NCBI GenBank assembly: GCA_965645245.1
Contig: OZ287072.1
Location: 2,480,001-2,544,000, forward strand
Length of the DNA: 64,000 nt
Direction: 5' to 3'
DNA from: Massalongia carnosa
Taxonomy: Eukaryota
A model generated the notes under the pieces. It was not told the DNA's origin, searched no databases, and was given only the letters and a program-made list of their open reading frames with translations. Shown piece by piece: positions 11,343-62,185 of this stretch. Every line of letters begins with the position of its first letter. Within the stretch, counting starts at the first letter, position 1. The position numbers were made by a program, and so were the translations under genes.

Positions 11343-13732
11343 ATGGCTACTCCATCTACGACTAGTCTCGAGTACTCTGGGAATAGACCTGCTATGTCTG
11401 CAGGGCCCTTCGGGTTTGTGATGACCATGCCTCAGCCAGGGACTCCCGGGACCCCATTCTTTCAAGGTAAAAATGTGTCGGAGTTCTTGAGTAGGTATGA
11501 AGACATGTGCGAAGACTACCACGTCGGGAACAATGAAAAGATTCGTAGGTTACCCCGCTATTGTGACATGCTAATTGGACAGACGGTGGAGTCACTACCT
11601 GACTTTGTGGAAAGAAGATGGGCTCAGCTATGTAAGGTGATGAAGAAGGAGTATAATGCTGGTGATAGTATTCAGCAGGTGAATTCTCGAGCGTTTTTGG
11701 AGTCATACAAGGACAAGGAACGTACTAGTGAAGATGACGTGCGAAACTTTTGCCGAAAGTTCGGGCCATATCCAAAGTCCTAATTGGTCAGGAAAAGCTA
11801 GATATTTATACACGCAATCAGTGGTTCCTACAGGGCCTTCCCAAGGACGTACGCGAGGAGTTGTTCTTCCGCCGAGGTGTTGATTTTGACGATAATGTGA
11901 TGAAGGACTTTGATGGATTGGTGAAGAAGACATTGGGACTAGTGGAGGCGAGGCTCAAATATAAAGAGGTGATGCGGACTGAGAAGAGTGTTACTGACAA
12001 ATATAGTGCCCTAGCCGATCAATTTGATAGGAAGATAGTGCTGGATGGTCATGAAAATATCATGAATTCACTTACCCCACCAGTTGCAGACAGTTCGACC
12101 GTTAGCTTGTCGAAGTCCACGGAGAAGGCTATTGCCGGTTTAACCGAAAGGTTTGATGCGCTGGTCCTGATGGCGGGAACTCAGGCCCGTCCAGCCAATC
12201 AGAACAGTCAGCAGACTCGGAACCGTTCATAGTCACCTGGTAGATAGGCACCTTATGATGGCCAGAAACCGAATGACCGTCAGTATGGAGGGGAGGATTC
12301 CTGCACATACTGTGGAGAGAAGGAGACCCATGATAGGCGGAGGAACTGCCCGGAGTTTGATGCCGACCAGCGGAATGGTGTTATTCATCTGAATGAGCGA
12401 GGGTTGTTATGTCTAGGACCGATGGGCACATACTCCAATCCCATTCGGCATGTGCCCGGGGTGACACAGAAGGAGTCCATTAGGCGCGCAAAAATGCTGG
12501 CCAATCAATTCAGTCATGCGGACCAAAGTGCTAATGTCCACTCAGTTCGAATTGGCGAGGATAGCGCGGACGAATATTCATCTGATGAAGAATGGGACCC
12601 TGAGGTGACCATCATCGACACCACCTCTGTCAATTCAGCTAGAACGGAACAACAGAAGCCTGTCGAGGAGAGCTGGAGGGAGCCAGCTAAGCGAATTCTG
12701 AAACGCAGGGCTGAACGCGAGGACAAGTTCGCAGTACCGAAAGCACCCAGATATGGCAGTTGGAACCCGGTTCCTGCCTCGGTAGAACGTCGGAGTGACA
12801 ACTCTGACCAATCAAGACCACCTAGCTCAATTGTAACTGATAAATCTCATGCGACTGAACCTCGTGTTACATTCGCCGACCCTTTGGAAGAAGATGTGAC
12901 CATGACGGAGGCGGGCCCAGCTAGCCGCCTCCGCAGCAGCAGCGGCGGCGGCAAAGGAAAGAAACATGGGGTCGGGGTTCCGACAGGCCCCATCCGAAAG
13001 GAGGTTCGGTCTGCGATAGAACAGATGGGCACCGAAGAGTTTCTACGGATCGCGAAACATGAGTTCAACATGGACCTAATACAGAGTCATTGTTTGCAAA
13101 TACCTTTGCCTGGTGCTGGAGGACTGACCTATGGAAATCTGATGGCCATGATGCCTATGTTTAAACCGGTGGTCAATAAGATGACACGGAATGCCGAACC
13201 GGAAAAGGCAGAGGGTCCAACGGTAAAAATTGGTTCAATTGGCATTCGGGACCCGCGACTTCGCAGGGCCTACACGAGGTCGACACCAAAGGCCAAAGTG
13301 CAGATCGGCGATAGTTACAGGTATAAGTCTCTCCTAGACTCCGGCGCTGAAGTGAATGTGATGACGTACAACGTGGCCAAGCGTGAAGGCCTAGCTATGC
13401 GACCCTATCCCAATATCAATCTTATTTCTCATACTGGAGACCGGAAAGAATTCCTAGGTGTATGTGAGGACGTTGAGGTTAATATTGGCGGAATAGTGTC
13501 GCTCAATCACATATTTGTCATCGACGCTGCGGATCATCAATTAGTGTTGGGCCAACCTTACCTTCATCAGATGCGTGTCGATATGGATTATCAGAATAAC
13601 GAGGTGGAATGTACTATACATGCGGAGGAGGGAAACCGAGCTGCCAAATTCACCGCAACTTCTGACTCAACTAGTAAAAATCGTACTGCAGAGGATCTGT
13701 TTCCGGAGGGCCGAGAGGAGAATTTAAACTGA
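11343..13732 (+). pseudogene. Gypsy gag-protease (frameshift and stops)
   Basis: PFFQGKNVSEFL capsid-like start, CTYC..H....C knuckle near 12300, protease LLDSGAEVN. Pieces 11343-11783, 11750-12232 and 12404-13732. Confidence 0.85.
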
Positions 13733-13776
13733 CCAACCACCATGTGCAGAACAGGTCCATGGTTGGTAGTGGTGGT
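13723..13776 (+). promoter_or_regulatory. Putative -1 programmed ribosomal frameshift signal
   Basis: T TTA AAC heptamer just before the gag-PR stop; the -1 frame is the pol frame (13744 ORF). Downstream ACCAACCA/TGGTTGGT stem. Confidence 0.75.
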
Positions 13777-14560
13777 AAAAACCTGGAGAGAGCGAAAGTA
13801 TCGAGTGTTAGGGTGGGACTTCCGGAAAGTGGTTCTTCCGTTCCATTTAACAGGCCCGGCCTGTTAAATCAAATAGCCCTAACTCCTACAGCGACTAGTG
13901 CGGAAGAGGCAGCGATGGACCACTATATGCGCGCCTTAACACCGTCGCGTTCAATTGGCTCGGTCGGACTTTCCTCTCTAAGGTTCTCTCGAAAATTCGA
14001 CATATATACAATCAATCAAAACAGAGTGTTCGGCAAGCGGAGTACGGTGAGAGTTAACACGGCGTATAAGCGGAAAGCGGTAAAAGTTCGACCAGTGAAT
14101 TCTGACCAGTCGGATGGCACCATACCTGGTGGAATGGCAGATTGGAAAGCGAAGGCGCTAGAGAAAGAGAGAGGTCTACCAAAGTCAGAAAAGTTTCCTG
14201 ATTGGCTGATTCCAAAGTTCTCGACAATATTCAAAGGTTCACGATTGACACCGGAACGGCTGCAGCGAATGACAGTGGGCGACAGTATGACGTCTGCTGA
14301 GAAAGAAGTGTTGACCCAGATGTTATACAACCGAGAAGCAGCGCTGTCATGGGAGTTTTCCGAGATGGGCAGAGTCAAACCTGAGGTGTCTCCACCATGT
14401 AAAATCAACACCATTCCACACGAGGCATGGCAGACCCCATCATTCCCATTGCCAAGGGCCCTGGTACCGATGGTGATAGAGATGCTGAAGGACCGACTGC
14501 AGCGAGTAACGTTGGAACCTTGTCATGGTCCCTATCGAAACCCATGGTTCATAGTGAAGA
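13723..14560 (+). pseudogene. Gypsy pol part 1 (RT N-terminus), interrupted by a Copia
   Basis: Ends ...PCHGPYRNPWFIVK at the Copia LTR and continues KKKEKNKYRLI at 22812. Confidence 0.85.
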
Positions 14561-14660
14561 TGTTGAATGTTCAACTTCTACCAGCACAACAGATTAGATT
14601 AGATCAGTTCCAGTCTAACCGTATCGGTTACTTAAGACCTTTAACCGTGTCTTAAGCAAC

Positions 14661-16008
14661 CACGCGGGGCCAAAAAAAGTTCCCACACCAAAATTTCACC
14701 CACCCTAAAAATCCTTCTTTACCCAACTCCCTCATCATGAATAATCACTATTATACACGACTATATGCAACAAAATCGCTCAATGTCCTGTCATTTTACC
14801 CTCTCTATCTAGCACATCATGCATGCGTTGTGGCATTTGCTCTACTAACGAATTGATCCATTCCTAGGGAACGTGATCCCTCTACCCTGTACGAATTGCA
14901 TCTAAAGTGGTCTCATCGTCCCAATGATCCGATTTTGATAACCACTGCTTGACGGGCTGCCAGCAGTTTTCAATGATGGACAAATCGGGAGCTTTTGGGG
15001 CGTTGAAGTAGTACTTTAACCCGTTTTCTTCCTTTCATTTCCGTACGATGTTGTTATTGTTGGCTGAACCATGCCCCGAATCACCATCTTCCTCCAAAAC
15101 AAATCGTTCACTCACCTCGAGACACAGCTTTACAATAGGCTCCAAAATGGAGTCTATATAAACTCTTTGACTCATCTTTCCATTGGTGTTTCCAGGAACC
15201 TCGTAAAAAATCAGATCTGATTTGTAATTCCATCCCACCCACGCCCAGCAATGAAAACGCTTTTGTACTCTTTCTTCGGGCTCTTTCCCCTCCTGCATGC
15301 AGTCAAAACAATCTCTTTGACCCGGTCGACGTATAATGCGCAATCGGCGTTGAGGACCAAGCCCGAAATGAACTTCATCGCTGAAACGAACCAACTTCCA
15401 GTCCTCCAATGTCCAAGTGGTGATTTTATCTCGTGCAAAAGTACGTCTTAAAGCACGAAGATGAGGAGCAATCTAGGTCCTCGTACAAGCGATGCATTTG
15501 TGATATTCCAAGTCCTGCATAGTATTTCTGATGGTATGCCAATGCACTCGATTACTGCCCACGAGGCCTACTTCTTTGGCCAGTTGATGCCAGGACATAG
15601 CTCGAGCTTGAATAACCTCCATTTTCAATTATTTCCTCCAGTCTCTTGAGAGTCTCCCAATCAATCGCTTTTTTCTACCTCGAGTCTCTGGCCAGACCGA
15701 GTTGTGATGAAATCGACGGGATGATTCGCCCCAAAGCATGGCATCACCGCTCATTCGTTCCACGCCGAAATGACGAAAAACGTCTTCTTTAAATAGAGAA
15801 TTTTATGAGCATCATTAAATTCAACAACAGCTTGAACTTTAGCTTTTATGGGCGTAGAATACTCCTGATTACAGTTATGATCATCAAAATCAGGTGTACT
15901 AGAACGATTAATTGATGATTGATTATTCATAATGAGGGAGTTGGGTAAAAGAAGGATTTTTAGGGTGGGTGAAATTTTTGGTGTGGGAACTTTTTTTGGC
16001 CCCGCGTG
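14661..16008 (-). mobile_element. Tc1/IS630-like DNA transposon in the Copia 5' LTR (defective)
   Basis: ~85-bp TIRs starting CACGCGGGGCC, flanked by GCAAC on both sides. DDE fragments (FSDEVHF, EEDGDSGHG) on the minus strand. Confidence 0.92.
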
Positions 16009-16335
16009 GCAACCTAGGCTCGGATAAACTATTATCACTTCGCTTAATAGAGGGTGACCACTTAAAAGGAGAAGACTGCTTCCTAGCAACTCCTCATCTT
16101 ATACATTAGGATCATACACATTGTCATTTATTACATAGCCATATAGTCATAGTCATATACCTATTCAACAGGTTATGAGTCCGGAAGGGCGCTATCGATC
16201 ACACAGGAATCGAAGCAGACCTATCCGCTGCATTCAATGCTAAAACAGCTAAGCATCGATCTCTCTCGTCAAAAGTTCTATGAACGAGACATACTAAATC
16301 TTCATGTGCACGAGAGACAGAGACGATTGCCCACA

Positions 16336-16653
16336 GTGCCCATAGGCAAACTACAAAGTCCTACTAGCCTACGTGCCCCATAGGCAAACTACAAAGTCCT
16401 GCTGGCCTACGTGCCCCATAAGCAAACTACAAAGTCCTACTAGCCTACGTGCCCCATAGGCAAACTACAAAGTCCTGCTGGCCTACGTGCCCCATAGGCA
16501 AACTACAAAGTCCTACTAGCCTACGTGCCCCATAGGCAAACTACAAAGTCCTGCTGGCCTACGTGCCCCATAGGCAAACTACAAAGTCCTGCTAGCCTAC
16601 GTTCCCCATAGGCAAACTACAAAGTCCTGCTGGCCTACGTGCCCCATAGGCAA
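16336..16653 (+). repeat. 38-bp tandem array (8 units plus a partial) in the Copia leader
   Basis: Unit GTGCCCCATAGGCAAACTACAAAGTCCT(A/G)CT(A/G)GCCTAC starting at 16336, 16373, 16411, 16449, 16487, 16525, 16563, 16601 and 16639. Confidence 0.95.
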
Positions 16654-16749
16654 AATACTCAAAAGACCTATTGCCAGATTACATGCATCAGAGGCACTCT
16701 TCAAAGACCTTGAACACTCGACAGGCTTCTTGCCCGAAGGTTCTAAGAC

Positions 16750-17350
16750 AATCCAGATGATGACGTTGACCCAGAGGCAGATTTCAGTCTGACTTTTGCT
16801 GCATCACCATCCAGATGATGACGTTGACCCAGAGGCAGATTTCAGTCTGACTTTTGTTGCATCACCATCCACCTTACTTTGACCCAGAAGCAGATTTCAG
16901 TCTGACTTTTGCTGCATCACCATCCACCTTACTTTGACCCAGGAGCAGATTTCAGTCTGACTTTTGCTGCATCACCATCTACCTTACTTTGACCCAGAAG
17001 CTGAGCTCAGTCTGACTTTTGTTGCATCACCACTCAACTTACTTTGACCCAAGAACAGATCACTTCTAAACTCAAATTCTAACTGCATCATCATTTGATT
17101 GACGTTGACCCAGAGGCAGATCTCAGTCTGACTTTTGTTGCATCACCACTCAACTTACTTGACCCAAGAACAGATCACTTCAAAACTCTGATTCTTGCTG
17201 CACCATCATTTGACTGACGTTGACCCAGAGGCAGATCTCAGTCTAACTTCTGTTGCATCACCACTCAACTAACTTTGACCCAGAGGCAGACCATCTGAAC
17301 TATCTTTTAAGGTCTGATTTCTGCTGTATCACCTATCTTGACCCAGAGAC
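16750..17350 (+). repeat. ~55-61-bp degenerate tandem array (~11 units) in the Copia leader
   Basis: Recurrent TGACCCAGAGGCAGATTTCAGTCTGACTTTTGCTGCATCACC. Confidence 0.9.
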
Positions 17351-17755
17351 AGGCCTCGGAAATTTCAGTTCCAAGAAGTAATCAGACTTTCAATATGCAG
17401 AACGCCTCAAAATTCTCGGTATTGGTAGTTACAGACCTCGAAAAACCTTATTCCATTTAACAGGCCCGGCCTGTTAAATAGATCGGTATAGCCATGGTTC
17501 AGAACGCCCCTATCTTCACACCACCAAGTGAAAATTCCACCACTGAGTGAAAGTCTTTCATGAGGGTAAAAGCGTTGTGGCAAATAAGGAACAACACAGT
17601 TTGATGTCGCAGAGAGGGATCGTTTGTCTATATAATGACCACGTATCCCCATCTTCCCCATTCATTCCAGTGTACATCCTACTTCCGTGTTTACCTCAGA
17701 AACTTAGATATTTATAAAAAAATCACAGAAGTTTACTTAGACACCTCTTTTCATC

Positions 17756-20700
17756 ATGTCTCTCCCAGATGGCATCAGTTCCACAGAGAAGTCCTATCTT
17801 CTAGAGAAGGCAGAACACTATTCGGCATGGGGCTAGCTACACCAGAGGAGTTCTGCTGAAGAACAACTGCGATACAGCCATATTGGAGACCCAACCAGAT
17901 ATTACACTTGATTCCATCCGACAGAGCCTCATCGACTAAGGCTTCACTCAAGCCAGTCTTACTACCAGCATCCTTGTCAAAGAACTTCGGGATGACATGA
18001 ACAGACAGAAGACTGCGATGACCAAGGCTATTGGAATCATACACGGACTGGTTGCGCCATGCCATTTCAACCTCATCAACAACAAAATTGCTACCGAGAT
18101 GTGGGCAACCCTGAAGACTAGATTCCAGGACGTAGCACCAATGAGCATCACGGATGTCATCTTGAGGGTCAGTGCAAAAAGGATGAGAGATTTTGAAACC
18201 GTAGGTCAATACTGTGCAGAGTATGACGGTGCTTTCAATCAGATCAAGGGCATGTTGGTCGACGGAGCCAAGGTGAACATAGCCTCCATAGAGTTTGTGC
18301 TACAAGGCATGCTACTTGGTAACACTACAGACAAGTATGATCCACTCATTGCACAACTCCGCAGGGACTGGACACATGACACCACAAGTCTCTCAGAAAC
18401 CACAAAGACCCTCATTGCATATGCAGGCAACAACACAGACGTCAAGGCCCTTCACACTATCACTAGCACTTCATCCAACAGAGGCAGAGCACCTATAGGA
18501 AGTTGTACTGTTCCAGAGTGCGTAGCAACGAATAGGACTCGCCACTGGCCAAATGAGTGCTTTCAGAAGTTTCCTCATCTGAAGAGAGCGAGAGACGTAG
18601 CTGATTCAGGGAGGGCCAAAAGTGCCAAGTCCTCCAAGCCAGAAACAACGGCTGTTTCAGAATCCTCGGCCACAGAACCCCCTACACTGAACAGTTGACT
18701 CACACTGGTCACGACCACAGTACTACAGAAGGTCATGGCCATGACAAACTCAGACCGAGACACCTGGCTCCTTGACAGCGCTGCAGACATGCACGTATGT
18801 AATCACAGATCATCTTTTATTGATTACGTAGTACGACCAACAGGTCTGGCGGGATTTACTTCGGAAGGAATGTCTCCAGGGAGGGGAGTTATCGAGAGAA
18901 CGTTGGCACTACAGGACGACTCACCCTCGTCAGTGTTAATCTTACACAACGTACTGCTCATTCCACAGTGTCCAGTGAACTTTATCAGCCTGGCACTACT
19001 CAATCGTCATGACATCTACTATGACAATCTGAACTGGACCCTATTCCTCCAATCCAGTGGAAGGGTCATAGGGTATGTCCCAAGAGTCAACACCAACTTC
19101 ATAGTAAAGATCTTGGATACTCCAGAAGTGGCTGTACGTCTCACAGATAGACGATCAAACTTTTCAATGGCCCAAGACCGCTGTTTATCATACATCTAAC
19201 AGAGCGGACTTGACAACATGACATGCACGTCTTGGTCATCTGAACATAACTGCTTGTCGCACTTATCTAAAGCGACTCGATGTACCTTACTCGGACAATG
19301 TCAGCAAGGATTGGTACTGTCCATCCTGTGAACTCGGAAAGGCTACAAAGATATACAACAGAACATCTCAGGAGAGAGCTACAGGCATCTTTCAAAAGGT
19401 TCATTCAGACCTGGTCGGACCCATCAAACCGGCGGGACTTCTCGAGGAAATCTACTTCTTCACCTTCACCTGTGACGCCAGCAGATACACACATGGCCAG
19501 CAGATACACACATGTGTATACCGTCATCAAGAAGAGCGAGTGGTTCGATCATCTGTCAACATATTACAGCCTGGCTCAGAACAAGACAGGAAAGAGCAAA
19601 CCAATGGGCGTCTTTCGCACCGACTATAGCACCGAACTCCGAAGTCTGAAATCGGACGACTGGTTTTTGAAGGAAGGGATAACGTTTGAACCCTCCGCAC
19701 CACATTCACAGGAACAGAACGGAGTGTCCGAAAGAACAGGCAGGACCATCATGGACATGACCAGGTGTACCATCATCGAAGGATTCCGGACTATTTATGG
19801 ACAGAGGTAGTTCTAGCTATGGTTCATACCAAGAACGTCAGACCTACAAACGCTTTATCTGGAAAGAGCCCCTTTGAAATTATGAGTCTAAGCCACTTTT
19901 TTAAACCATCTGAGAGTTTTGGGATCTACTGTATATGTTCTCGTTCATAGAGAAGAACGAGTAGGAGCAAATAGCAAATCGGTCAAATTCTAACCTCGGG
20001 CCCAGCGTGGCATTCTATGTGGATATGACGGATGCACTACTTATCGGGTTTTCTTGGAAAAGGACTGTAGGGTCATCAGGGTCAAAGATCTGCGCATTCA
20101 TGAGGTCGCCATCTCCAAATACCAGACCGACGTTCCTACGTATGATGCCATCATGGCACCCGATACAAACATCCTATCAGAACCAGTTGTCATTTCACCT
20201 CCCACTTCAACTCCTAAACGTGGACGAGGTAGACCCAGAAAACATATTCATGTGAAGCACATATTGTCTCTGTTCTCCGACAAAGCTTTATTTGAACCAG
20301 ACCATGTTCATACATCTGAAGACAGACATGCAGAGGACTCACTTGTTCTATTAGCCAGAACCCCTATGAAAGAAGGCAGTCTATTCAGAAATGAATCTCA
20401 GGCCTCAAGAATCAGACATTAAGCAATATCAAGCCATAGTAGGGTCCATCATATTTGCCATGATAGAGACACGGCCAGATATAGCCTTTGCAACCTCAGT
20501 GGTTAGCCGACATGCCAAAAACCCAGGCAAAACACATATGGAAGCAGCCAAACACATACTCCAATACCTCAGTGCCACCAAAGACAGAGGTATCACCTTT
20601 GGTGGGGGAGATATGTCTGTACAGGGCTATTCCGACTCTGACTGGGCCGGAGACAGGGAAGACCGCAAGTCCACCTCCGGATATGTCTTTATGTTAAACA

Positions 20701-21190
20701 ACGGACCAATCAGTTGGTGTTCCAGAAGACAACAAACCGTCGCACTCTCATCCACAGAAGCAGAATATATGGCACTCACCTTGGCTGCTAAGGAGACCAT
20801 ATGGATACGCTTATTGATGACTGAGCTCGGCCTGATGCAGGATGATGCTTCTCCGACAGTGAATGTACTTGAAAGGGAAGGCGCTATAGCACTGAAGGGT
20901 GATAATTAGATTGCTATAGCACTGGCCAACAATCCCGTCTTACATTCAAGGACTAAGCACATCGATATTTAGCAAACCACTTCATTCGAAATGAAGTCAC
21001 AGAGGGCCGGATAGACCTTACATATGTCCCAACTGAACACATGGTAGCGGACGGGCTGACAAAGCCGCTTACCCACGTCAAGTTCTTCTCTTTTATCAGA
21101 CAACTACATATGGACTCGGCTACTGAGCTCGATAGTCATCACGCAACAGATTCGACCACCTACAGACCTCATCTGACGGACAAGTACTGA
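17756..21190 (+). pseudogene. Copia gag-pol relic
   Basis: Gag with a C..C...H....C knuckle, PR WLLDSAA, IN (RTD..E, QNGVSER), AT-hook, then only the RT C-terminus (YQAIVGS) and RH (YSDSDWAG, SSTEAEY). Many stops and frameshifts. Confidence 0.88.
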
Positions 21191-21307
21191 TAGAACTTGA
21201 GGGAGGGTGTTGAATGTTCAACTTCTACTAGCACAACAGATTAGATTAGATCAGTTCCAGTCTAACCGTATCGGTTACTTAAGACCTTTAACCGTGTCTT
21301 AAGCAAC

Positions 21308-22656
21308 CACGCGGGGCCAAAAAAAGTTCCCACACCAAAAATTTCACCCACCCTAAAAATCCTTCTTTTACCCAACTCCCTCATTATGAATAATCAATCA
21401 TCAATTAATCGTTCTAGTACACCTGATTTTGATGATCATAACTGTAATCAGGAGTATTCTACGCCCATAAAAGCTAAAGTTCAAGCTGTTGTTGAATTTA
21501 ATGATGCTCATAAAATTCTCTATTTTAAAGAAGACGTTTTTCGTCATTTCGGCGTGGAACGAACGAGCGGTTATGCCATGCTTCGGGGCGAATCATCTCG
21601 TCGATTTCATCACAACTCGGTCTGGCCAGAGACTCGAGGTAGAAAAAAAGCGATTGATTGGGAGACTCTCAAGAGACTGGAGGAAATAATTGAAAATGGA
21701 GGTATTCAAGCTCGAGCTATGTCCTGGCATCAACTGGCCAAAGAAGTAGGCCTCGTGGGCAGTAATCGAGTGCATTGGCACACCATCAGAAATACTATGC
21801 AGGACTTGGAATATCACAAATGCATCGCTTGTACGAGGACCTAGATTGCTCCTCATCTTCGTGCTTTAAGACGTACTTTTGCACGAGATAAAATCACCAC
21901 TTGGACATTGGAGGACTGGAAGTTGGTTCGTTTCAGCGATGAAGTTCATTTCGGGCTTGGTCCTCAACGCCGATTGCGCATTATACGTCGACCGGGTCAA
22001 AGATATTGTTTTGACTGCATGCAGGAGGGGAAAGAGCCCGAAGAAAGAGTACAAAAGCGTTTTCATTGCTGGGCGTGGGTGGGATGGAATTACAAATCAG
22101 ATCTGATTTTTTACGAGGTTCCTGGAAACACCAATGGAAAGATGAGTCAAAGAGTCTATATAGACTCCATTTTGGAGCCTATTGTAAAGCCGTGTCTCGA
22201 GATGAGTGAACGATTTGTTTTGGAGGAAGATGGTGATTCGGGGCATGGTTCAGCCAACAATAACAACATCGTACGGAAATGGAAGGAAGAAAACGGGTTA
22301 AAGTACTACTTCAACGCCCCAAAATCTCCCGATTTGTCCATTATTGAAAACTGCTGGCAGCCCGTCAAGCAGTGGTTATCAAAATCGGATCATTGGGACG
22401 ATGAGACCACTTTAGATGCAATTCGTACAGGGTGGAGGGATCACGTTCCCCAGGAATGGATCAATTCGTTAGTAGAACAAATGCCACAACGCATGCATGA
22501 TGTGCTAGATAGAGAGGGTAAAATACAGGACATTGAGCGATTTTTGTTGCATATAGTCGTGTATAATAGTGATTATTCATGATGAGGGAGTTGGGTAAAG
22601 AAGGATTTTTAGGGTGGGTGAAATTTTGGTGTGGGAACTTTTTTTGGCCCCGCGTG
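21308..22656 (+). mobile_element. Tc1/IS630-like DNA transposon in the Copia 3' LTR (defective, DD38E)
   Basis: Same element as 14661-16008 in the opposite orientation, flanked by GCAAC/GCAAC. ORF 21386-21844 ends in TAG and continues to ~22540 with SDE, EEDGDSGHG and SPDLSIIEN. Confidence 0.93.
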
Positions 22657-22816
22657 GCAACCTAGGCTCGGATAAACTATTATCACTTCGCTTAATAGAG
22701 GGTGACCACTTAAAAGGAGCTTCCTAGCAACTCCTCATCTTATACATTAGGATCATACACATTGTCATTTATTACATAGCCATATAATCATAGTCATATA
22801 CCTATTCAACAGAAGA

Positions 22817-24145
22817 AGAAAGAGAAAAATAAGTACCGATTAATTAATGCGGCCCTAGACATGAACAAAGTGACCATCCGAGACGCAAATCTGCCACCTT
22901 CGGTAGACGAATTCTTAGAGGACTTTGCTGGCTGCCACATCGCTTCCTTGATCGACTTTTTTTCAGGATATGACCAAATGAACTCGATGTTCATAGTCGA
23001 GACATGACCGCCTTCATGACACCAATAGGACTATTGCGAATGACATCTATACCAATGGGAGCTACCAATTCGGTTGCACAGTTCGTACGGGTAGTGACAA
23101 AGATACTGCAGGACCACATTCCGAATCGTGCTAAACCTTTCCTTGATGACATCGGAGTGAAGGGGCCGAAGACTGACTATGGTGGTGAAGAAGTGGCACC
23201 AGGCATCAGAAAGTACGTGCTTGAACATCTCATGTGGCTAGATGGGGTACTCGCGGACATAGAAAGGGCTGGATGCACTATCTCCGGAGAAAAAGTCGCA
23301 ATTTTGCATGGCCGGTCTGAAGATAGTAGGATTTGTGACCGACTCCGATGGTAGACATCCGGACACCGCTAAGGTCATCAAAATTCTAGAGTGGCCGATA
23401 TGCACCGACGCTTCTTCCGCTCGTGCTTTTATAGGTGTGTGTGTGTACTATCGCATATGGATATTGGACTTTGCCATTGTTGCTGAACCAATATATCGTC
23501 TGCTGAAGAAAGATGCTGCTTTTGTATGGGGCATGGAACAAACCGAGGCAATGGACTTGCTGAAGATAGCTCTGACATCTCCGCCAGCACTAAAGACCAT
23601 TGACTATAGCGAGCTAGCTGGACTTATCATATTGGCTGTGGGTGCGAGTTTGAAAGGATGGGGCGCTGTACTGATGCAAATCTTTGATGGCAAGCGTCAC
23701 CCCATTCGGTACGAAAGCGGAGTATGGAGCGAGGTGGAACAGCGATATGATGCAACCAAGCGAGAGTGTCGAGGCGTTCTAAAGGCATTGAAAAAGACAA
23801 GGCACTGGCTATATGGAGTTCACTTTGTGTTGGAGACAGACGCCAACGTCCTAGTGGCGCAATTGAATGGAGCTTGTACCGATTTGCCTGGTACTCTGAT
23901 AGTCCGATGGATAGCATGGATACGACTGTTTGACTTCGAGGTCAAACATGTTGCTGGCCGAAAACATACGGCAGCAGATAGACTGTCTAGACGACCTCAT
24001 ACTGAGGAAGAAATTCGGGCCGAACAGCAGGAGCAAGACATAGACAACTTCATACATGCCGAACTGAATTCACTAAGGGCCTGTCCAATTTCCGTTAACT
24101 CCGCAGACGAGGTGCCAGACGAAAAGGTGCTAAAGGCCGGATATA
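22817..24145 (+). pseudogene. Gypsy pol part 2 (RT-RNase H)
   Basis: IDFFSGYDQ, PMGATNS, FLDD, GWGAVL, ETDA, ADRLSR. Confidence 0.9.
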
Positions 24146-25463
24146 GAGTAACGTAATTGCCACCTATTCGGGCCAACCACCTACTCGGGCCGCCCCATCA
24201 AAATCCATTGGCCACCTAATTCTTTTCCATTATCATTTATCACCACCATCCAACCATAATCAAATGAATTCAAAATTAGATATCTCAGATTCTAATACTC
24301 GTTTAGAATTAGCTCTTGAATATTTGCGGGAAAATCCTAATGTATCACAACGAGAAATCGCCCGTGTTTATGACATTCCTCGATTGACGCTTCAAGCTCG
24401 TTTACGGGGGAGACAACCTGCAAAATCCTATCATCAAACTATGCAAAGACTATCCGTACAGGAGGAACAAGCACTGATTACATGGATTGAAAGAATGACT
24501 GCATGGGGCTGGCCCCCTCGAATTATACATCTTGAAGGCATGGCTAAGAGTTTGATGGAGGCCAAAGGGGATCGAAAAGCGCTTGGACACCATTGGTATA
24601 AAAACTTTTGAACAGACATCCTGAATTCAAGTTAAAATACAATAGAAATTTGGATCAGGTCAGAAAAGACGCCAGCGACCCTGTTATCATGAAGGATTGG
24701 TTTGATTTGTACATGACCACTCGCGAGAAATACGGTGTCGCAGATGCAGATATATACAACATGAATGAAAAAGGATTTGCCATGGGCATTGCGGACAGTT
24801 CTAAGGTCATAATAAGAGGTAATACAGCACCTTTCAATGTGCATCCAGGAAACAGGGATTGGGTCACTTTAATTGAGTGTATATCCTCTCGCGGGAGTAT
24901 TCTTCCTGCTTATATCATTTTTCAAGGTGCTCAGATTCAGCAAGCCTGGTATGCAGCCATTGCGGATGAGAAAACAACTATTCGGGTCAGTCCCAATGGA
25001 TGGACGGACCGGGAAATTATCAAAAGGTAGTATAGTAGATAGAGGGTAGAACGCTTGCTGTTGTTCTATATAGTGGGAATAGCTAGATTTATAGACAATG
25101 TACGGTATGCTAGTATTAGACTAGCGATACGTCTAGCCATTAGCGTGCGCCATACTCGTGCGGTAGAAGGTGAGTGCGGCTGAAATGAAGTAACCTGATT
25201 TGTACATTCTAACACTCCCACTCAGGCACTGAAATAGCACTCCCACATGATAAAGAGAAATTCAATAACTCCCACATACTCCAGTATAATATCATGCTTC
25301 CCAGTGGATCACCTGCAGGTGAGTCAGTGTACTCCGCAGGCTAATGCTGCTGGCGATGTACGAAAACACCCCCACAGGCTCAGCTGTGGGTGATACTTTT
25401 TTTTTTTTTTTTTGGGTTAAGGTCGAATTTTTTACGACAAAGGGCTTCTGGTTTATTCTAAGC

Positions 25464-44547: not shown

Positions 44548-45745
44548 CACGCGGGTGACAAAAAAAACTGCACACACAAACTTTCCCCGCACTTCTATCT
44601 TTGCAATCACCCTCAGCATCAATTGATTAAATGAATCGTACTACCATAACTGAGCATGATAATGACGATGATGACGAAGATCATTATCCTACTCCAGTCA
44701 AACCAAAAGTTCAAGGTGCTGTCGAATTTTGCGAGCGCATGAACATTCCTTACTTCAAAGAGGATGTTTTTCGAGCTTTCAATGTCAGTCACGGTCGGGG
44801 CTGGGAATTTCTTCGCGATAATTCACCTTCTTCATCTTCTCGACGAAGACATAATGATTCAAATCAAGAAGAGACTCGAGGTCGTAAATGTCTCATTACT
44901 CCACGAAAATTCGAGAAATGGAGCGTCTTTTAGAGGAAGAGGGCATAGAAACTCGCGCGTTGACTTGGGAGCAATTGGCTATGAAGTTGGTTTAGACTGC
45001 ACCGGACGAACAGTTCAGAGAGTTATGGGTACTATGAATTATCACAAGTGTGTCTCTTGTAGAAAGGGCTGGGTCAACAAGAAAACAGCGAAAAGTCGAA
45101 TGAATTGGGCTGAGATTCTGCTTCATAAATATCCTGAATCGGAGGATTGGCATCACGTACGATTCAATGACGAGGTGCATTTTGGCTGGGGTTCTCAAGG
45201 GAAATTACGAATAATTCGTCAACCAGGTACACGATATTGTTAGGATTGCATTCAAGAAGCAGACGAACCGAATGAGAAAGATACAAAACGTCATCATTGC
45301 TGGGCCTCCGGAGGACACAATTTCAAGTCGGACATCTACTTTTACGAGATTCCTGGCAATTCGGATGGAAAAATAAGTCAAAAGGCTTACATCGAGCAAA
45401 TTCTCGACCCCATTGTACTTCCATGGCTACAAGCAGGTCAGAATTTCGTTTGGAAGAGGATGGTGATTCGGGTCATGGACCAGGCAAATCAAATATCGTA
45501 CGCACCTGGAAGGAGAAACATGAACTAAAGCACTACTTCAGTTGCCCTTCGTCTCCTGATTTGTCTCCCATTGAGAATTGCTGGCAGTTTCCAAAACAAC
45601 ATCTTCGTAAATATCCACATTAGGACGATGCGACCACTAAGGAGTTGATTTTAGAGGGATGGAACCATGTTTCGCAGAGATTTATCAACGAAAAGGAAGC
45701 TACAATGCCTGACCGTCTCCGAGCAGTTATTTCTGGTGAAGGTGG
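44548..45745 (+). mobile_element. Tc1/IS630-like transposon body (DD37E, defective); 3' end at 9742-9884
   Basis: TIR CACGCGGGTGAC; fragments FNDEVHF, EEDGDSGHG and SPDLSPIEN. Confidence 0.88.
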
Positions 45746-46005
45746 TGTGGAGGGGTGGAGTGGACCTCCACCAGATGGCCAGATGACAGGTGTCTGTACG
45801 CGAGGGTCAGTGCTACCGAACACCATTGCCGGAAGTCACATGATCGCTCCCTATGCCGTCAGTTATATTCCCGCTCGCCCACTTCTTCTGTTCAGTTTGT
45901 CTCTTCATCTCTTCATCTAGTCAGCTAGTCAGTGCACACGTAGCAACTTAACAACGACGATGACCTGATCATTCATTTCTTTTTCATATGATGGCCCAGT
46001 GACAG
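45746..46005 (+). repeat. Gypsy-type solo LTR, main part
   Basis: Starts TGTGGAGGGGTGGAG (like the Gypsy LTR start), interrupts the Tc1 ORF, and is completed by the reverse complement of 9885-9933. Confidence 0.8.
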
Positions 46006-58176: not shown

Positions 58177-61100
58177 CACGCGCGTGACAGAAATAGGCGG
58201 CCACCAAAATTTCCCCGCACCACCCACACCTTAGTTTTTTAATTTTTACATCGTACATGTACGTACACACTTTTATCAATTCTTTATAAGCAATGGAGCC
58301 TGTTCTAGAGTCACGAATCACTATAAATACTGAGCATACCACTCCTACCAAGGCGAAAGGGATTTTGCGTTCAAAGCGAGAGGTTTTCGACTTTTTCGGC
58401 GTGGGACATACTCGAGGTTATGAAATACTCAACGATCAAGAAACTAATCGACGGCATGATCATACAAACAAATCGGAGACTCGTGGTCAGCCTCGCAAAC
58501 TGTCAAAGAAGCAGATAGATCGTATGGATGAAATATTGCAAACCTGGGGCTTGGAGGGAACGAGATGCTTAGGGACAGTCCCCCCCGACCGTCCCCCCTG
58601 TGTAAATCTTTACTAGTAAACAGCCATTTTACTACTCATCCAGGGTGCGTACAAGCTAGCAGTTACACTACGTATTAATAATGTTGCTGTTACTGACTAA
58701 GTGTATTCAACACCTACAAATCTACCTATTAAAACTCGTCAGCCAATTGCGATACATAATCTTTTCTAGGCTTCATGGTTTTAGCCACCTTTCTCATCGC
58801 CGTTCCCTTTCCTCGCTTGAGCCCTAGCCTGTTTGACTGATTTCTCGACTCTTTGCTGAGATTCCAACTCCAACTGAGCCTTTGATTTCTTCGCCACACC
58901 CCGAGACCTTCGCGTTGTTGCAGAGGAAGTAGGGAGATTTGACTGGCGCGCACGTTTTGGCTAAGGCTATAACTTAAAGAGATGGAGGCGGCGCTGCCTG
59001 AGGTAGGGCTTTTTGACTATGCTTGGCAAGCACATCGTCAATATCTTCGAGCGAATCCGACGAGGCTTCTGATGTAAGAATAACATCATTATCGTCATCC
59101 GAAGGAAGCATAGGATCCATAGAATGACCGAGAATGGGCTGAGTGCTTATATACTGCACCTCGTCATCGTCGTCGGAGACGATAGACGCGTTTTCGATTC
59201 TCTCAATAACTAAGTTTTCTCCTAAACCTATTGTACCCAATATTAGCCGACCTGAGCGCAATAACTTTGCAACATCGTGAATTTTACCTTCTGTTTCACC
59301 TTCAACCTCATCGTCGCCCCCAGCACGCAATCTATTATATCTAAGCCTCCTCCCTTGTTCAATAGAGTCCCTTCGCCTAGTACGTCGCTGTTCAGTTTCT
59401 CTAGCCTCAGCTGCCTCGCGACCAGTGTAGGCACGTCGACGACTCCCTCCTTTCTTATACATGAGGTTTTCTTTGGGCCGAATTTCGTCGGGGAATGTGG
59501 TGGGGATGAGAGGTCTTACCAGCTCCTTCTTTTGCCATTTCTAATTGAACTTTTCAACGATGTGAGCTCGCGAGCGTACTCCTCCCTTCGATGAGAATCT
59601 TCTATTGATTGATGCAGGTCAATAGATTGATATGCCACAGAATGTAGCAAATCAAGGCCCCCGCGGCGAAATATATCCACACTCAACACGCCTTCTTCGA
59701 GCTCGACCTCATCCTTATCCGCCTCAATCTCTCCCGTCCCTTCGACCTCATCGACGATCTTTTCGACCTCGGGCTCCGAGCCGCGAGCGAAATCGAAGGT
59801 CATTTGCCAAGAGACCGCATAAGGTGGGCCATCAAAAAAACCAGCGGGGGTGGATGAGGGAAACGGGAATAGGGACCGAGTCGATGATGCATTTATACAA
59901 CCAGCATTTGCATGGGAGACCGTACCTTAAAGGCAACTCATAATCATAAACACAGCTTCCACCATCAGGGACAATAGAAAGGATTCGTTCAGCTAATGAT
60001 TTGGCGGCATCGAGTTCTCTTGAAACGAGGCCAATGGCATGATGCGTAATTTTCCCAATGAGTAGCGTAAAAGCATTTCTATCGATCAATCTAGGATTGC
60101 GTATTCGCTGTTGATTGCACAAAATCTCCTGATCTAATTGTTTTTTCCGCACCTCATCACATATTTTCTGCACCGATTGTCTTATAGGAGTATTTCTATT
60201 GGTCACATTTTTAACCAATGAATGTAGACCTTCTGAACGCTGTGTGCTGTGTGCGCCTAAATTAGGGAGTTTAGTAGTATATGCATGCACGAACTGAATT
60301 TCTTGACGTTGATAGAAATTCATGAGATAATCCTGCGAAAGAGGTAGCGTTAGCAGTAGCCCTAACTCGCTTGAAATTTAATTTGATATATCACTACTAA
60401 CCTTTTCTACGGGATGAAGTTCATTCAGCAACTTTCTTCGTCTCTCATTCAACTCATCAATAGTGAGGGATTTTATATAATCCCAAATCAGAGTCTCCAG
60501 CTTTTTGCGCACTTCTTGGGGATATTTCCCTGCCTTGATCAGTCGTTTTTATATTGCCTCGGCCGCATGCCACGTGCACAGCTGCAAATCGCATCTCTCC
60601 TCGCCCGCTTCCACCGTTGATTGGTTTAGATTTCCGGCGACCTCTCTTGCAATGGCCAATGCAGCATCGAGATCAATTGCCGGAGCTTTAGCTTTTCTTT
60701 GCATGGCCACAGTCAACCCAGCTGCAAAATCCCCGAGAATCACCCCAGGCCCGGGGCAATCATCATGAAAAATCAACTCTTTCATACATTCGAAAATAAA
60801 AGAGAAACATTCGGCCGATTCGGAAGTTATATAGCAATAAGCGACGGGAAACGAAAGGTCGGTGTTAGTGATTCCAACAAAAACGGATAAAGGCAAGTTC
60901 AATTTATTTAGTATTGAACGTTGCATCCGTTTCTAATAAAAACCCACCCACGAAACGTCGAGCCAGCCTAATTTGGTCTGCATTGCAAAAAAAAAAATTG
61001 TTCTATCACCCGTCTCTCACGCACATTATTCTTAACAATATATTTTTCCTTACACCGTACATGAAAGCCCCTGTCTTTCAACGAGCCCAAGGCAAAAAGA

Positions 61101-62185
61101 AGCTCTTCTTCAGGCGTGTGAGCTCCCTCCGAATGAGCGAGATTATAATAATCGCTCCTCGACAGACGGAGTCCTTGGATTCCTAATATTCTCGCTGCTT
61201 GGCCATATTGGGTTGACGATGCACGGAGACTCTTCCCTTGATCTAGGGCATCTATTCGATCAGGGTCCCTACTATGATGTTCTCTGAATGCAAAGGGATC
61301 AGTAGCCATCTCAAGATTGTGCTCGGAGTAAGTGACTATTAGTCTCCATGCATTGTCTTTGTTTTTTTTTTGAGACGGAGGCGATAAGGGCACTCATTGA
61401 ACGAAACTTTGGTATTGGCTCGCACCCGGTCTTCCCCCTCTACTTTTCTAGTGTTTCTAGCTCTTTTGTGGTGGCGTGTGCAGTCTAATACGATTAAATG
61501 GTTTTTCTTATCGTGAGTTTCTGTGACCAACGCGAAGCCTTGGGTGAAGGCATAGTTTTGAAGAATAGTCTTTGCCTCCTCCCAAGACGAAAATAACTCA
61601 TTGTCCTGCGGAGGAACGAAACTATCGTAAATGTCTCGCATGCACAAAAACCTACGTCCCGAAAGATTTGATGATTGCACGAAAGGATTGGGCTTGGAAC
61701 AAACGAAACACATACTCGTTGAATGATTGGAAAAGAGTTCGCTTTTCCGATGAAGTTCATTTCGGACGAGGACCTCAACGAAGACTACGCATCATTCGAA
61801 AACCTGGCGAGCGTACGTGTCAGGATTGCATTCAGGAACAACATGAGCCTGAAGAGAAGGACAAAAAACAGAAACGATATCATTGTTGGGCTGCTGTGGG
61901 GTGAAACTTCAAATCAAAGCTGATTTTTTATGAGGTTCCCAGCAATTCGAATGGAAAGATGAGTCAGAAGGTGTATATTGACTTCATTCTGGAACCGGTA
62001 GTAAAAACATGGCTCGAAACAGACCCGAATTTCGTGTTGGAAGAAGATGGCGATTCAGGACATGGATCGGGGAAGGACGAGCATGGGCTAAAATACTACT
62101 TCAACTGCCCTCGTTCTCCTGGTCTTTCTCCTATCGAAAATTGGTGGCAGGTGCCCAAACAACGGGTAGGTCGTCAACCTCATTG
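58177..62185 (+). mobile_element. Third Tc1/IS630-like element, interrupted by a MULE and a Copia
   Basis: TIR CACGCGCGTGAC; ORF 58293-58560 resumes near 61619 (NYRKCLAC, FSDEVHF, EEDGDSGHG, SPIEN); 3' end not in the window. Confidence 0.85.
58561..61618 (-). mobile_element. MULE related to 48146-51400, 5'-truncated
   Basis: TIR CGAGATGCTTAGGGACAGTCCC at 58561; homologous ORF fragments (LGDFAAG, LQLCTWH, STQRSEG, YKKGGSRRRAYTG); other TIR missing. Confidence 0.85.

Follow-up and report, generated by a model that had tools for sequence, protein, structure and literature searches.

The stretch of Massalongia carnosa DNA analysed here (64 kb of contig OZ287072.1, positions 2,480,001 to 2,544,000; hereafter the window) is densely packed with nested transposable elements. 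One of them, a retrotransposon of the Copia type, carries the same DNA transposon in both of its long terminal repeats (LTRs). In each LTR the transposon is placed at offset +100 between identical GCAAC flanks, on the minus strand in the 5′ LTR and on the plus strand in the 3′ LTR. This arrangement had been noticed in an earlier inspection of the letters alone (the sequence-only reading) and was confirmed by our analysis. Our leading explanation, to which we give somewhat less than an even chance, is that one insertion was duplicated along with the LTR and that one of the two copies was later inverted once.

The copy in the 5′ LTR (14661-16008, minus strand, called open reading frames (ORFs) P0126 and P0133) is more decayed and 1348 bp long, the copy in the 3′ LTR (21308-22656, plus strand, called ORFs P0130 and P0121) is better kept and 1349 bp long, and both follow LTR base 100. 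GCAAC lies to the left and right of the element at 14656-14660 and 16009-16013 in the 5′ LTR and at 21303-21307 and 22657-22661 in the 3′ LTR. The two copies are mutually reverse-complementary with an identity of 98.5% over 1353 aligned columns, the 20 differences being 15 substitutions and 5 one-base indels, and their outer 222 and 116 nt are 100% complementary (inverted repeats I2 and I4). With base 100 of about 257 as its insertion point, the element probably sits in U3, upstream of TATA-like motifs.

Each copy is bounded by terminal inverted repeats (TIRs) of about 89 nt. A 16-nt terminal motif occurs four times in the window compared to 0.4 expected occurrences, which is not a product of chance. 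Left and right TIR differ from each other by two one-base indels and one mismatch, leaving identical blocks of 29, 28, 18 and 11 nt; the outermost block comprises 29 nt, or 33 nt if an ambiguous A run is counted. The left TIR (A5/T4/T type) occupies 21308-21396 (plus strand) in the 3′ LTR copy and 15920-16008 in the 5′ LTR copy. The right TIR (A4/T3/C type) is found at 22570-22656 on the minus strand and, in the 5′ LTR copy, at 14661-14747. As the sequence-only reading had stated, the indels travel with the body of the element. Both copies keep the pure, unscrambled left and right types, therefore the reversed part is the whole element, or any break lies inside the outer identical block of 29-33 nt.

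A premature stop links the two copies. Both read KCIACTRT followed by TAG, a codon that encodes W (7) or C (1) in all 8 other members of the nearest protein cluster, from which it follows that the TGG>TAG change is private to the LTR pair. This cluster has 10 members from megabase contigs and includes the window fragments P0121 and P0126. For comparison we used four sequencing runs (X1, X2, X4 and X5) from three studies as contigs with k=31. In X1, X4 and X5 all contigs that cover position 21843 have a G there; in X2 the G accounts for 14482 of 16282 depth units. The two copies also share an A at 22511 (G>R in the protein), which is distributed in the runs like the TAG; both changes are absent from the other family copies covering these positions, in X2 from most of the depth. 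Furthermore, the exact 152-aa product truncated by the TAG is on record from one contig only. Judged by these shared changes, the two copies are sisters that derive from one defective copy, as had been claimed before, and an origin from two unrelated donors is ruled out by the shared TAG and 22511A.

The GCAAC pentanucleotide is a genuine 5-bp target site duplication (TSD), and it was a true transposon insertion that split the LTR. Indeed, empty LTRs with a single GCAAC were found in X1 (one contig), X2 (two contigs) and X5 (one contig) and as three loose ends in X4. The joint of the empty site (21302>22657) is present in X1, X2 and X5, and several variant empty LTRs are present in the run contigs as well. 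The LTR ends are joined to 8-10 different flanks per run, which identifies the LTRs as a multicopy family. In the four runs, no contig was seen to bridge from the LTR into the element or across the junction of the Copia element with the Gypsy element, thus none of these runs demonstrably holds this very insertion. The k=31 contigs also contain no strand-changing joint, a result that is uninformative as the distance from the flank to the first TIR difference spans 36 nt.

The Copia element is itself nested in the reverse transcriptase region of the pol gene of a Gypsy element, of which parts are located at 13678-14560 and 22812-24156, the latter with an RT_RNaseH_2 match at 23263-24153. Its TSD is GAAGA, with the left copy at 14556-14560, read directly in the host Gypsy pol, and the right copy at 22812-22816. 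Contigs of X2, X4 and X5 show the unbroken Gypsy site with one GAAGA, which confirms the pentanucleotide as the Copia TSD and indicates that other Gypsy copies are empty at this site. The 5′ LTR (14561-16170, plus strand) consists of 257 nt of LTR, the nested element and one extra TSD copy; it was delimited by direct repeats (D3-D5), BLAST of LTR parts and its TG…CA ends. The 3′ LTR (21208-22811, plus strand) holds 250 nt of LTR and the nested element. Both LTRs start with TG and end with CA, with the 5-bp GAAGA on each side of the pair. A 7-bp deletion is private to the 3′ LTR (16071-16077 compared to 22719), and the 7 bp are kept by other LTR copies in X1.

The internal region of the Copia element (16171-21207, plus strand) starts with tandem arrays, followed by remnants of gag, the protease beta-barrel, integrase and RNase H. 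Two arrays lie just inside the 5′ LTR at 16263-17290, one with a 38-bp unit in about 12 copies and one with units of 55/115 bp. A purine run at 21200-21207 directly adjoins the 3′ LTR. The profile matches appear in the order Retrotran_gag_2 (22.4 bits, below cut-off), Pol_BBD (35.1 bits, above cut-off), gag_pre-integrs, SH3_retrovirus and RVT_3 (the last three all under their cut-offs), with the integrase before the RNase H. The profile search gave no RVT_2 match in the Copia interior. By its domain content, the retrotransposon is best described as a degenerate, non-autonomous Copia-type element without recognisable reverse transcriptase.

Two lesions interrupt the otherwise open transposase ORF of the 3′ copy (21386-22579), namely the TAG at 21842-21844 and a C-terminal frameshift. 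Besides the shared TAG (15473-15475, minus strand), the 5′ copy has its own frameshift and three additional stops. The product of the 3′ copy matches DDE_3 with E = 5.7e-14 (52.6 bits, cut-off 28.6). D185, D282 and E321 are invariant in the transposase alignment (A1), the latter two being 38 residues apart. A match to HTH_Tnp_Tc3_2 reached 19.4 bits in the same ORF, under the cut-off of 31.5, and PF01498, the Tc3-type helix-turn-helix (HTH), is precomputed for many of the relatives. A total of 222 proteins match the transposase at E ≤ 1e-5; the named ones come from ascomycete fungi, and UniRef lists fungal relatives as 'Tc1-like transposase DDE domain-containing protein'. Intact transposases of 383 aa (P0001 and P0128) exist within the nearest cluster. 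The window also holds three further decayed Tc1-like transposase relics (44685-45752, 61611-62183 and 58323-58559) with 32-60% amino acid identity to the nested element, all without detectable TIRs. An exact scan of metagenome contigs for the 29-nt TIR sequence gave 0 matches.

TSDs were surveyed at 80 metagenome loci encoding relatives of the transposase (33-53% amino acid identity). An automatic scan yielded 21 elements with both ends, of which 20 were left after removal of a duplicated flank pair and 18 had flanks that could be used; the ends of the relatives share the start CACGCGG, followed by an A run. Among these 18, an exact 5-bp TSD was present in 10, a 3-bp match in 1, a 2-bp match in 1 and no duplication in 6, while TA flanks were found in none. 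The exact 5-bp duplications (10/18) compare to 1 in 306 mismatched control pairs (Fisher P = 1.5e-13). With ends set by hand, 13 of 19 relatives showed exact 5-bp TSDs, and all 13 TSD sequences differ. These relatives are located at loci L005, L009, L011, L017, L020, L028, L029, L032, L035, L052, L053, L058 and L061.

The sites of the 13 relatives share a feature outside the duplication. Counted by eye, TA is found at −3,−2 of the TSD in 5 sites and at +2,+3 in 7 sites; this makes 12 of 26 half-sites, compared to a TA frequency of 0.051 (P = 1.7e-9, half-sites counted by eye). At least one side fits the pattern TA-N7-TA in 10 of the 13 sites and both sides do so in 2. The LTR site fits on both sides (TAA, GCAAC, CTA). 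In a motif count restricted to the window, TA-N7-TA occurs about 3.3 times per kb overall, with 2 sites in the emptied LTR, 18 in the emptied Copia element and 44 in Copia plus 5 kb on either side. By this survey, a fungal DDE_3/Tc1-like clade makes variable 5-bp TSDs with a TA one base outside on each side. Alternative element boundaries that give a TA TSD were rejected: with them the outermost 6 nt would no longer form inverted repeats, and another flank directly precedes CACGCG in the family copy that P0129 reads through.

The label 'Tc1-like' of the sequence-only reading thus holds for the transposase (DDE_3), but the family shows no TA duplication, which defines Tc1/mariner. Like Tc1, impala and fungal Mariner elements, the nested element has a DDE_3 domain, TIRs and a single ORF of about 380 aa within about 1.3 kb, and many of its relatives have a Tc3-type HTH. 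In contrast to Tc1/mariner elements, its TSD is a variable 5-bp sequence (GCAAC here) and not TA, and its ends begin with CACGCGG. Transib elements have a 5-bp TSD, ends beginning with CAC and a RAG1-like transposase. The 5-bp TSD and the CAC…GTG termini seen here resemble Transib, but the transposase is of the DDE_3 type and the resemblance is superficial. A paper on fungal Tc1/mariner families assumes TA TSDs (PMC4188875), MarCry-1_FO is described with TA TSDs (PMC3212892), and a survey of fungi bins DDE_3 elements as Tc1/Mariner (PMC5751038). No Tc1-like family with 5-bp TSDs was found in the literature searched.

The divergence of the two copies was compared to that of their LTRs. Substitutions amount to 15/1346 nt (1.1%) between the element copies, or 11/1165 (0.9%) without a clustered tract, and to 2/250 (0.8%) between the LTR parts (Fisher P = 1 for elements vs. 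LTR parts). These values fit one common start of divergence for element and LTR. They cannot separate carriage with the LTR and a flip from a second insertion or from conversion between the LTRs and a flip.

The clustered tract comprises 7 of the 20 differences and lies at 21523-21703 (15615-15793 in the 5′ copy; P = 0.012). At least two states of the 5′ copy in this tract recur exactly in P0132, a 59-aa product on another contig: the loss of a T at 21523 and the stop-creating 21564T. Contigs of X1 and X2 also have the 5′-copy haplotype of 21523-21703. The 5′ copy is probably a mosaic, for which ectopic gene conversion with other members of the family is the simplest source; these members probably do exchange sequence. 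Repeat-induced point mutation as the sole mutational process was rejected, as only 4 of the 15 substitutions are located in CpA, 3 in CpG, and 3 are transversions. The T at 22342 of the 3′ copy is absent from the contigs of all four runs, which have C throughout; either the runs do not stem from the assembled isolate or the variant was dropped in contig building.

According to the explanation we favour, an already defective (TGG>TAG) DDE_3/Tc1-like copy of 1.35 kb would have inserted once into the LTR of a non-autonomous Copia lineage, with a TA-N7-TA site as target and GCAAC being duplicated. The filled LTR would then have been duplicated on reverse transcription, and the Copia element would have integrated into the Gypsy pol, making the GAAGA TSD. 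Reverse transcription yields two identical LTRs. Both would consequently have started with the same insert in the same orientation, and the difference in orientation would have arisen after integration. One copy would later have been turned once, and the copies would have decayed independently from then on, the 5′ copy taking up a short tract from another family copy.

The flip may have occurred in one of two ways. Recombination or replication template switching between the element's own TIRs of about 89 nt, with the exchange in the outermost 29-33 nt, would reverse the segment. Alternatively, an abortive cut-and-religate reaction by the intact transposase of the family may have turned it, the symmetric ends being ligatable either way. 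Cut-and-religate in place would give a flip of the whole element without positional constraint on the exchange, and the intact transposases P0001 and P0128 could supply this step. Two other routes named in the sequence-only reading were rejected: an element that was excised and went back into the vacated site should be recognisable by two TSD copies or a footprint, and template switching on the TIR stem would require the reverse transcriptase to switch twice onto a plus-polarity template. The specific combination of carriage in the LTR through an RNA intermediate with a scarless in-place cut-and-religate by the family transposase has, in our view, only a slim chance of being correct. If it were true, the element could still toggle in the presence of transposase, with either end next to the LTR core promoter.

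Duplication with the LTR followed by one inversion is supported by the agreement of the two LTRs in 5-bp target and offset. It is favoured because the loose target preference and a family of about 10 copies make a second hit at the identical base improbable, and because inversion between inverted repeats is a known process. Common site and TSD, sister status, reversal of the whole element with unscrambled TIRs, and the existence of empty LTRs and intact transposases elsewhere are shown by the data; that the element passed through retrotransposition, which way it first pointed and how it flipped are what we infer. From the earlier proposal of hitchhiking and subsequent inversion, common descent and a true insertion are retained; passage through retrotransposition is plausible, though searches of limited reach gave no second filled LTR.

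Several observations weigh against this explanation. The orientation of both copies is read from the assembly alone. ORF searches of low sensitivity retrieved neither a parent element nor a further filled LTR: three junction or terminal ORFs had no exact match in the protein collection, the LTR-plus-TIR part of a 112-aa ORF of the 5′ copy retrieved only P0133 of the window among proteins of similar length, and the same part had no match among longer proteins. The search with the 112-aa ORF is weak, as it detects only minus-oriented filled LTRs with a called ORF. In X2 the depth of the TAG is about 1800, that of the 5′ haplotype about 1767 and that of single empty-LTR joints 390-980, which by shaky arithmetic gives about two copy-equivalents each of the TAG and of the 5′ haplotype and leaves no third, parental copy with the TAG; these sums are inconsistent elsewhere (e.g. 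for the G after 22524) and carry little weight. With no RVT_2 match and an insert of 1.35 kb in its LTR, the retrotransposon must have depended on mobilisation in trans, and this by way of an LTR that was disrupted. Confinement of the exchange to the outer third of the TIR is an approximately one-in-three outcome under homologous recombination.

The pattern of decay adds to these points. Among the polarised substitutions 7 are derived in the 5′ copy vs. 1 in the 3′ copy (P = 0.07), the changes of the 5′ copy being Y>D, P>L, M>V, S>A and three new stops. All 20 differences fall into the central 1019 nt, and the terminal 215 and 115 nt (21308-21522 and 22542-22656) are free of differences (P = 0.004 if uniform). 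CpG dinucleotides number 4 and 3 in the termini vs. 52 in the centre, which explains the clean termini only in part. The lopsided decay and the clean termini are left unexplained by carriage with the LTR and a later flip. Neither these two features nor the clustered tract decide between the routes.

The main rival, less likely though not negligible, is that two transposase-mediated insertions took place. The first entry would have occurred after integration of the Copia element; the second would have gone, in trans, into the homologous TA-N7-TA target of the sister LTR about 6.6 kb away, with the other orientation by chance, while gap repair or replication would have refilled the donor site. 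Such a second insertion would naturally give the flip of the whole element, the intact TSDs and the unscrambled TIRs. Intact transposases exist, empty LTRs are the common state, and the search for a filled parental LTR gave nothing. Insertions of this family favour a certain target; the LTR site matches the motif in both halves and is one of only two such sites in the emptied LTR. But this preference is loose, both halves fitting in only 2 of the 13 relatives, and with 44 motif sites in Copia and its 5-kb flanks and a family of about 10 copies the identical base would be a low-probability hit. A later hop also predicts a lower divergence of the transposon than of the LTR, which is not seen, in a test that has almost no power. 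The sequence-only reading had considered two site-specific insertions. The 13 different TSDs speak against a specificity for GCAAC, while a preference for TA-N7-TA, which the LTR site fits on both sides, is left of this idea. Repeated insertion into the same site would explain two copies at a homologous target without a flip; known double insertions involve elements with a strong site preference, but the preference here is loose.

It is distinctly unlikely that the element entered one LTR after integration, was copied to the other by LTR-to-LTR gene conversion (with arms of about 100 and 157 nt) and was then inverted once in one of them. This route needs no transposon-bearing parent, in line with the failure to find one, and sister status and equal divergence fit it as well as they fit duplication by reverse transcription. 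Exchange within the family is also suggested by the tract at 21523-21703 common to the 5′ copy and a copy on another contig. On the other hand, two rare events would be required, including conversion of a 1.35-kb heterology via short arms, before the same flip. The LTR parts still differ by 2 substitutions and the 7-bp indel, and there is no direct sign of conversion between them.

An assembly artefact, with the segment between the TIRs misoriented in one LTR, is very improbable. Perfect inverted repeats of 29-33 nt do make the orientation of the segment ambiguous for short k-mers such as those of the k=31 contigs, and 4 of the 5 one-base indels sit in base runs, as is typical of consensus errors. 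However, 15 substitutions keep the copies apart, and the 5′-copy states 21523 deletion, 21564T, 21572G and 21643 deletion were found independently in run contigs. The inner TIR differences at 30-80 nt resolve the orientation for reads over about 150 nt, and the 2.85-Mb length of the contig in a repeat-dense region suggests reads long enough for the 1.35-kb insert.

An actively invertible cassette that changes the output of the LTR promoter, as envisaged in the sequence-only reading, is hardly credible, since it has in its favour the geometry only (inverted repeats flanking a segment upstream of TATA-like LTR motifs), whereas repeated exchange in TIRs of about 89 nt with three differences should have scrambled them and the pure TIRs of both copies allow at most one or few events, no sign of two states was seen in k=31 contigs, which hide the orientation, the copies are about 1% diverged since their separation, and the element has no dedicated recombinase, its sole gene being a transposase that is broken in both copies.

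The two components of the favoured explanation, nested inserts in both LTRs and inversions between inverted repeats, are known kinds of event. Nested insertions in both LTRs of one retrotransposon are familiar from plant transposable elements, where they predate the last retrotransposition. Inversion of a segment between inverted repeats occurs between pairs of insertion sequences (IS) or TIRs, between plastid inverted repeats and in the yeast 2-micron plasmid. As in the former cases, insert, offset and TSD are the same in both LTRs and the inserts are sisters, but here the inserts are opposed, which reverse transcription cannot produce. As in the latter cases, a segment bounded by inverted repeats was reversed and its flanks were left untouched. 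In contrast to the IS, plastid and 2-micron inversions, the repeats are only about 89 nt long and imperfect, the exchange would be confined to the outer 29-33 nt, and the element has neither a dedicated recombinase nor any sign of coexisting states. No flipped insert in paired LTRs was described in the literature searched. The accessible parts of three papers (PMC12807066, PMC4528315, PMC3281118) describe neither a paired-LTR nested insert nor a flipped case, and in the portions available of the literature on inversion mediated by transposable elements only chromosomal inversions turned up.

If duplication with the LTR and one later inversion is the true course of events, the locus would be a natural record of a class II element that went through reverse transcription and was inverted as a whole between its TIRs afterwards. 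It would call for caution in LTR dating and in the annotation of nested transposable elements, and would open no new mechanism. The possibly more interesting outcome is the Tc1-like clade with 5-bp TSDs. A widespread fungal clade that is binned as Tc1/mariner by its DDE_3 domain makes, according to the TSD survey, 5-bp TSDs centred between two TAs, which changes its annotation. It also raises the question of how the stagger of the cut made by an IS630-Tc1-mariner transposase came to be 5 bp instead of 2.

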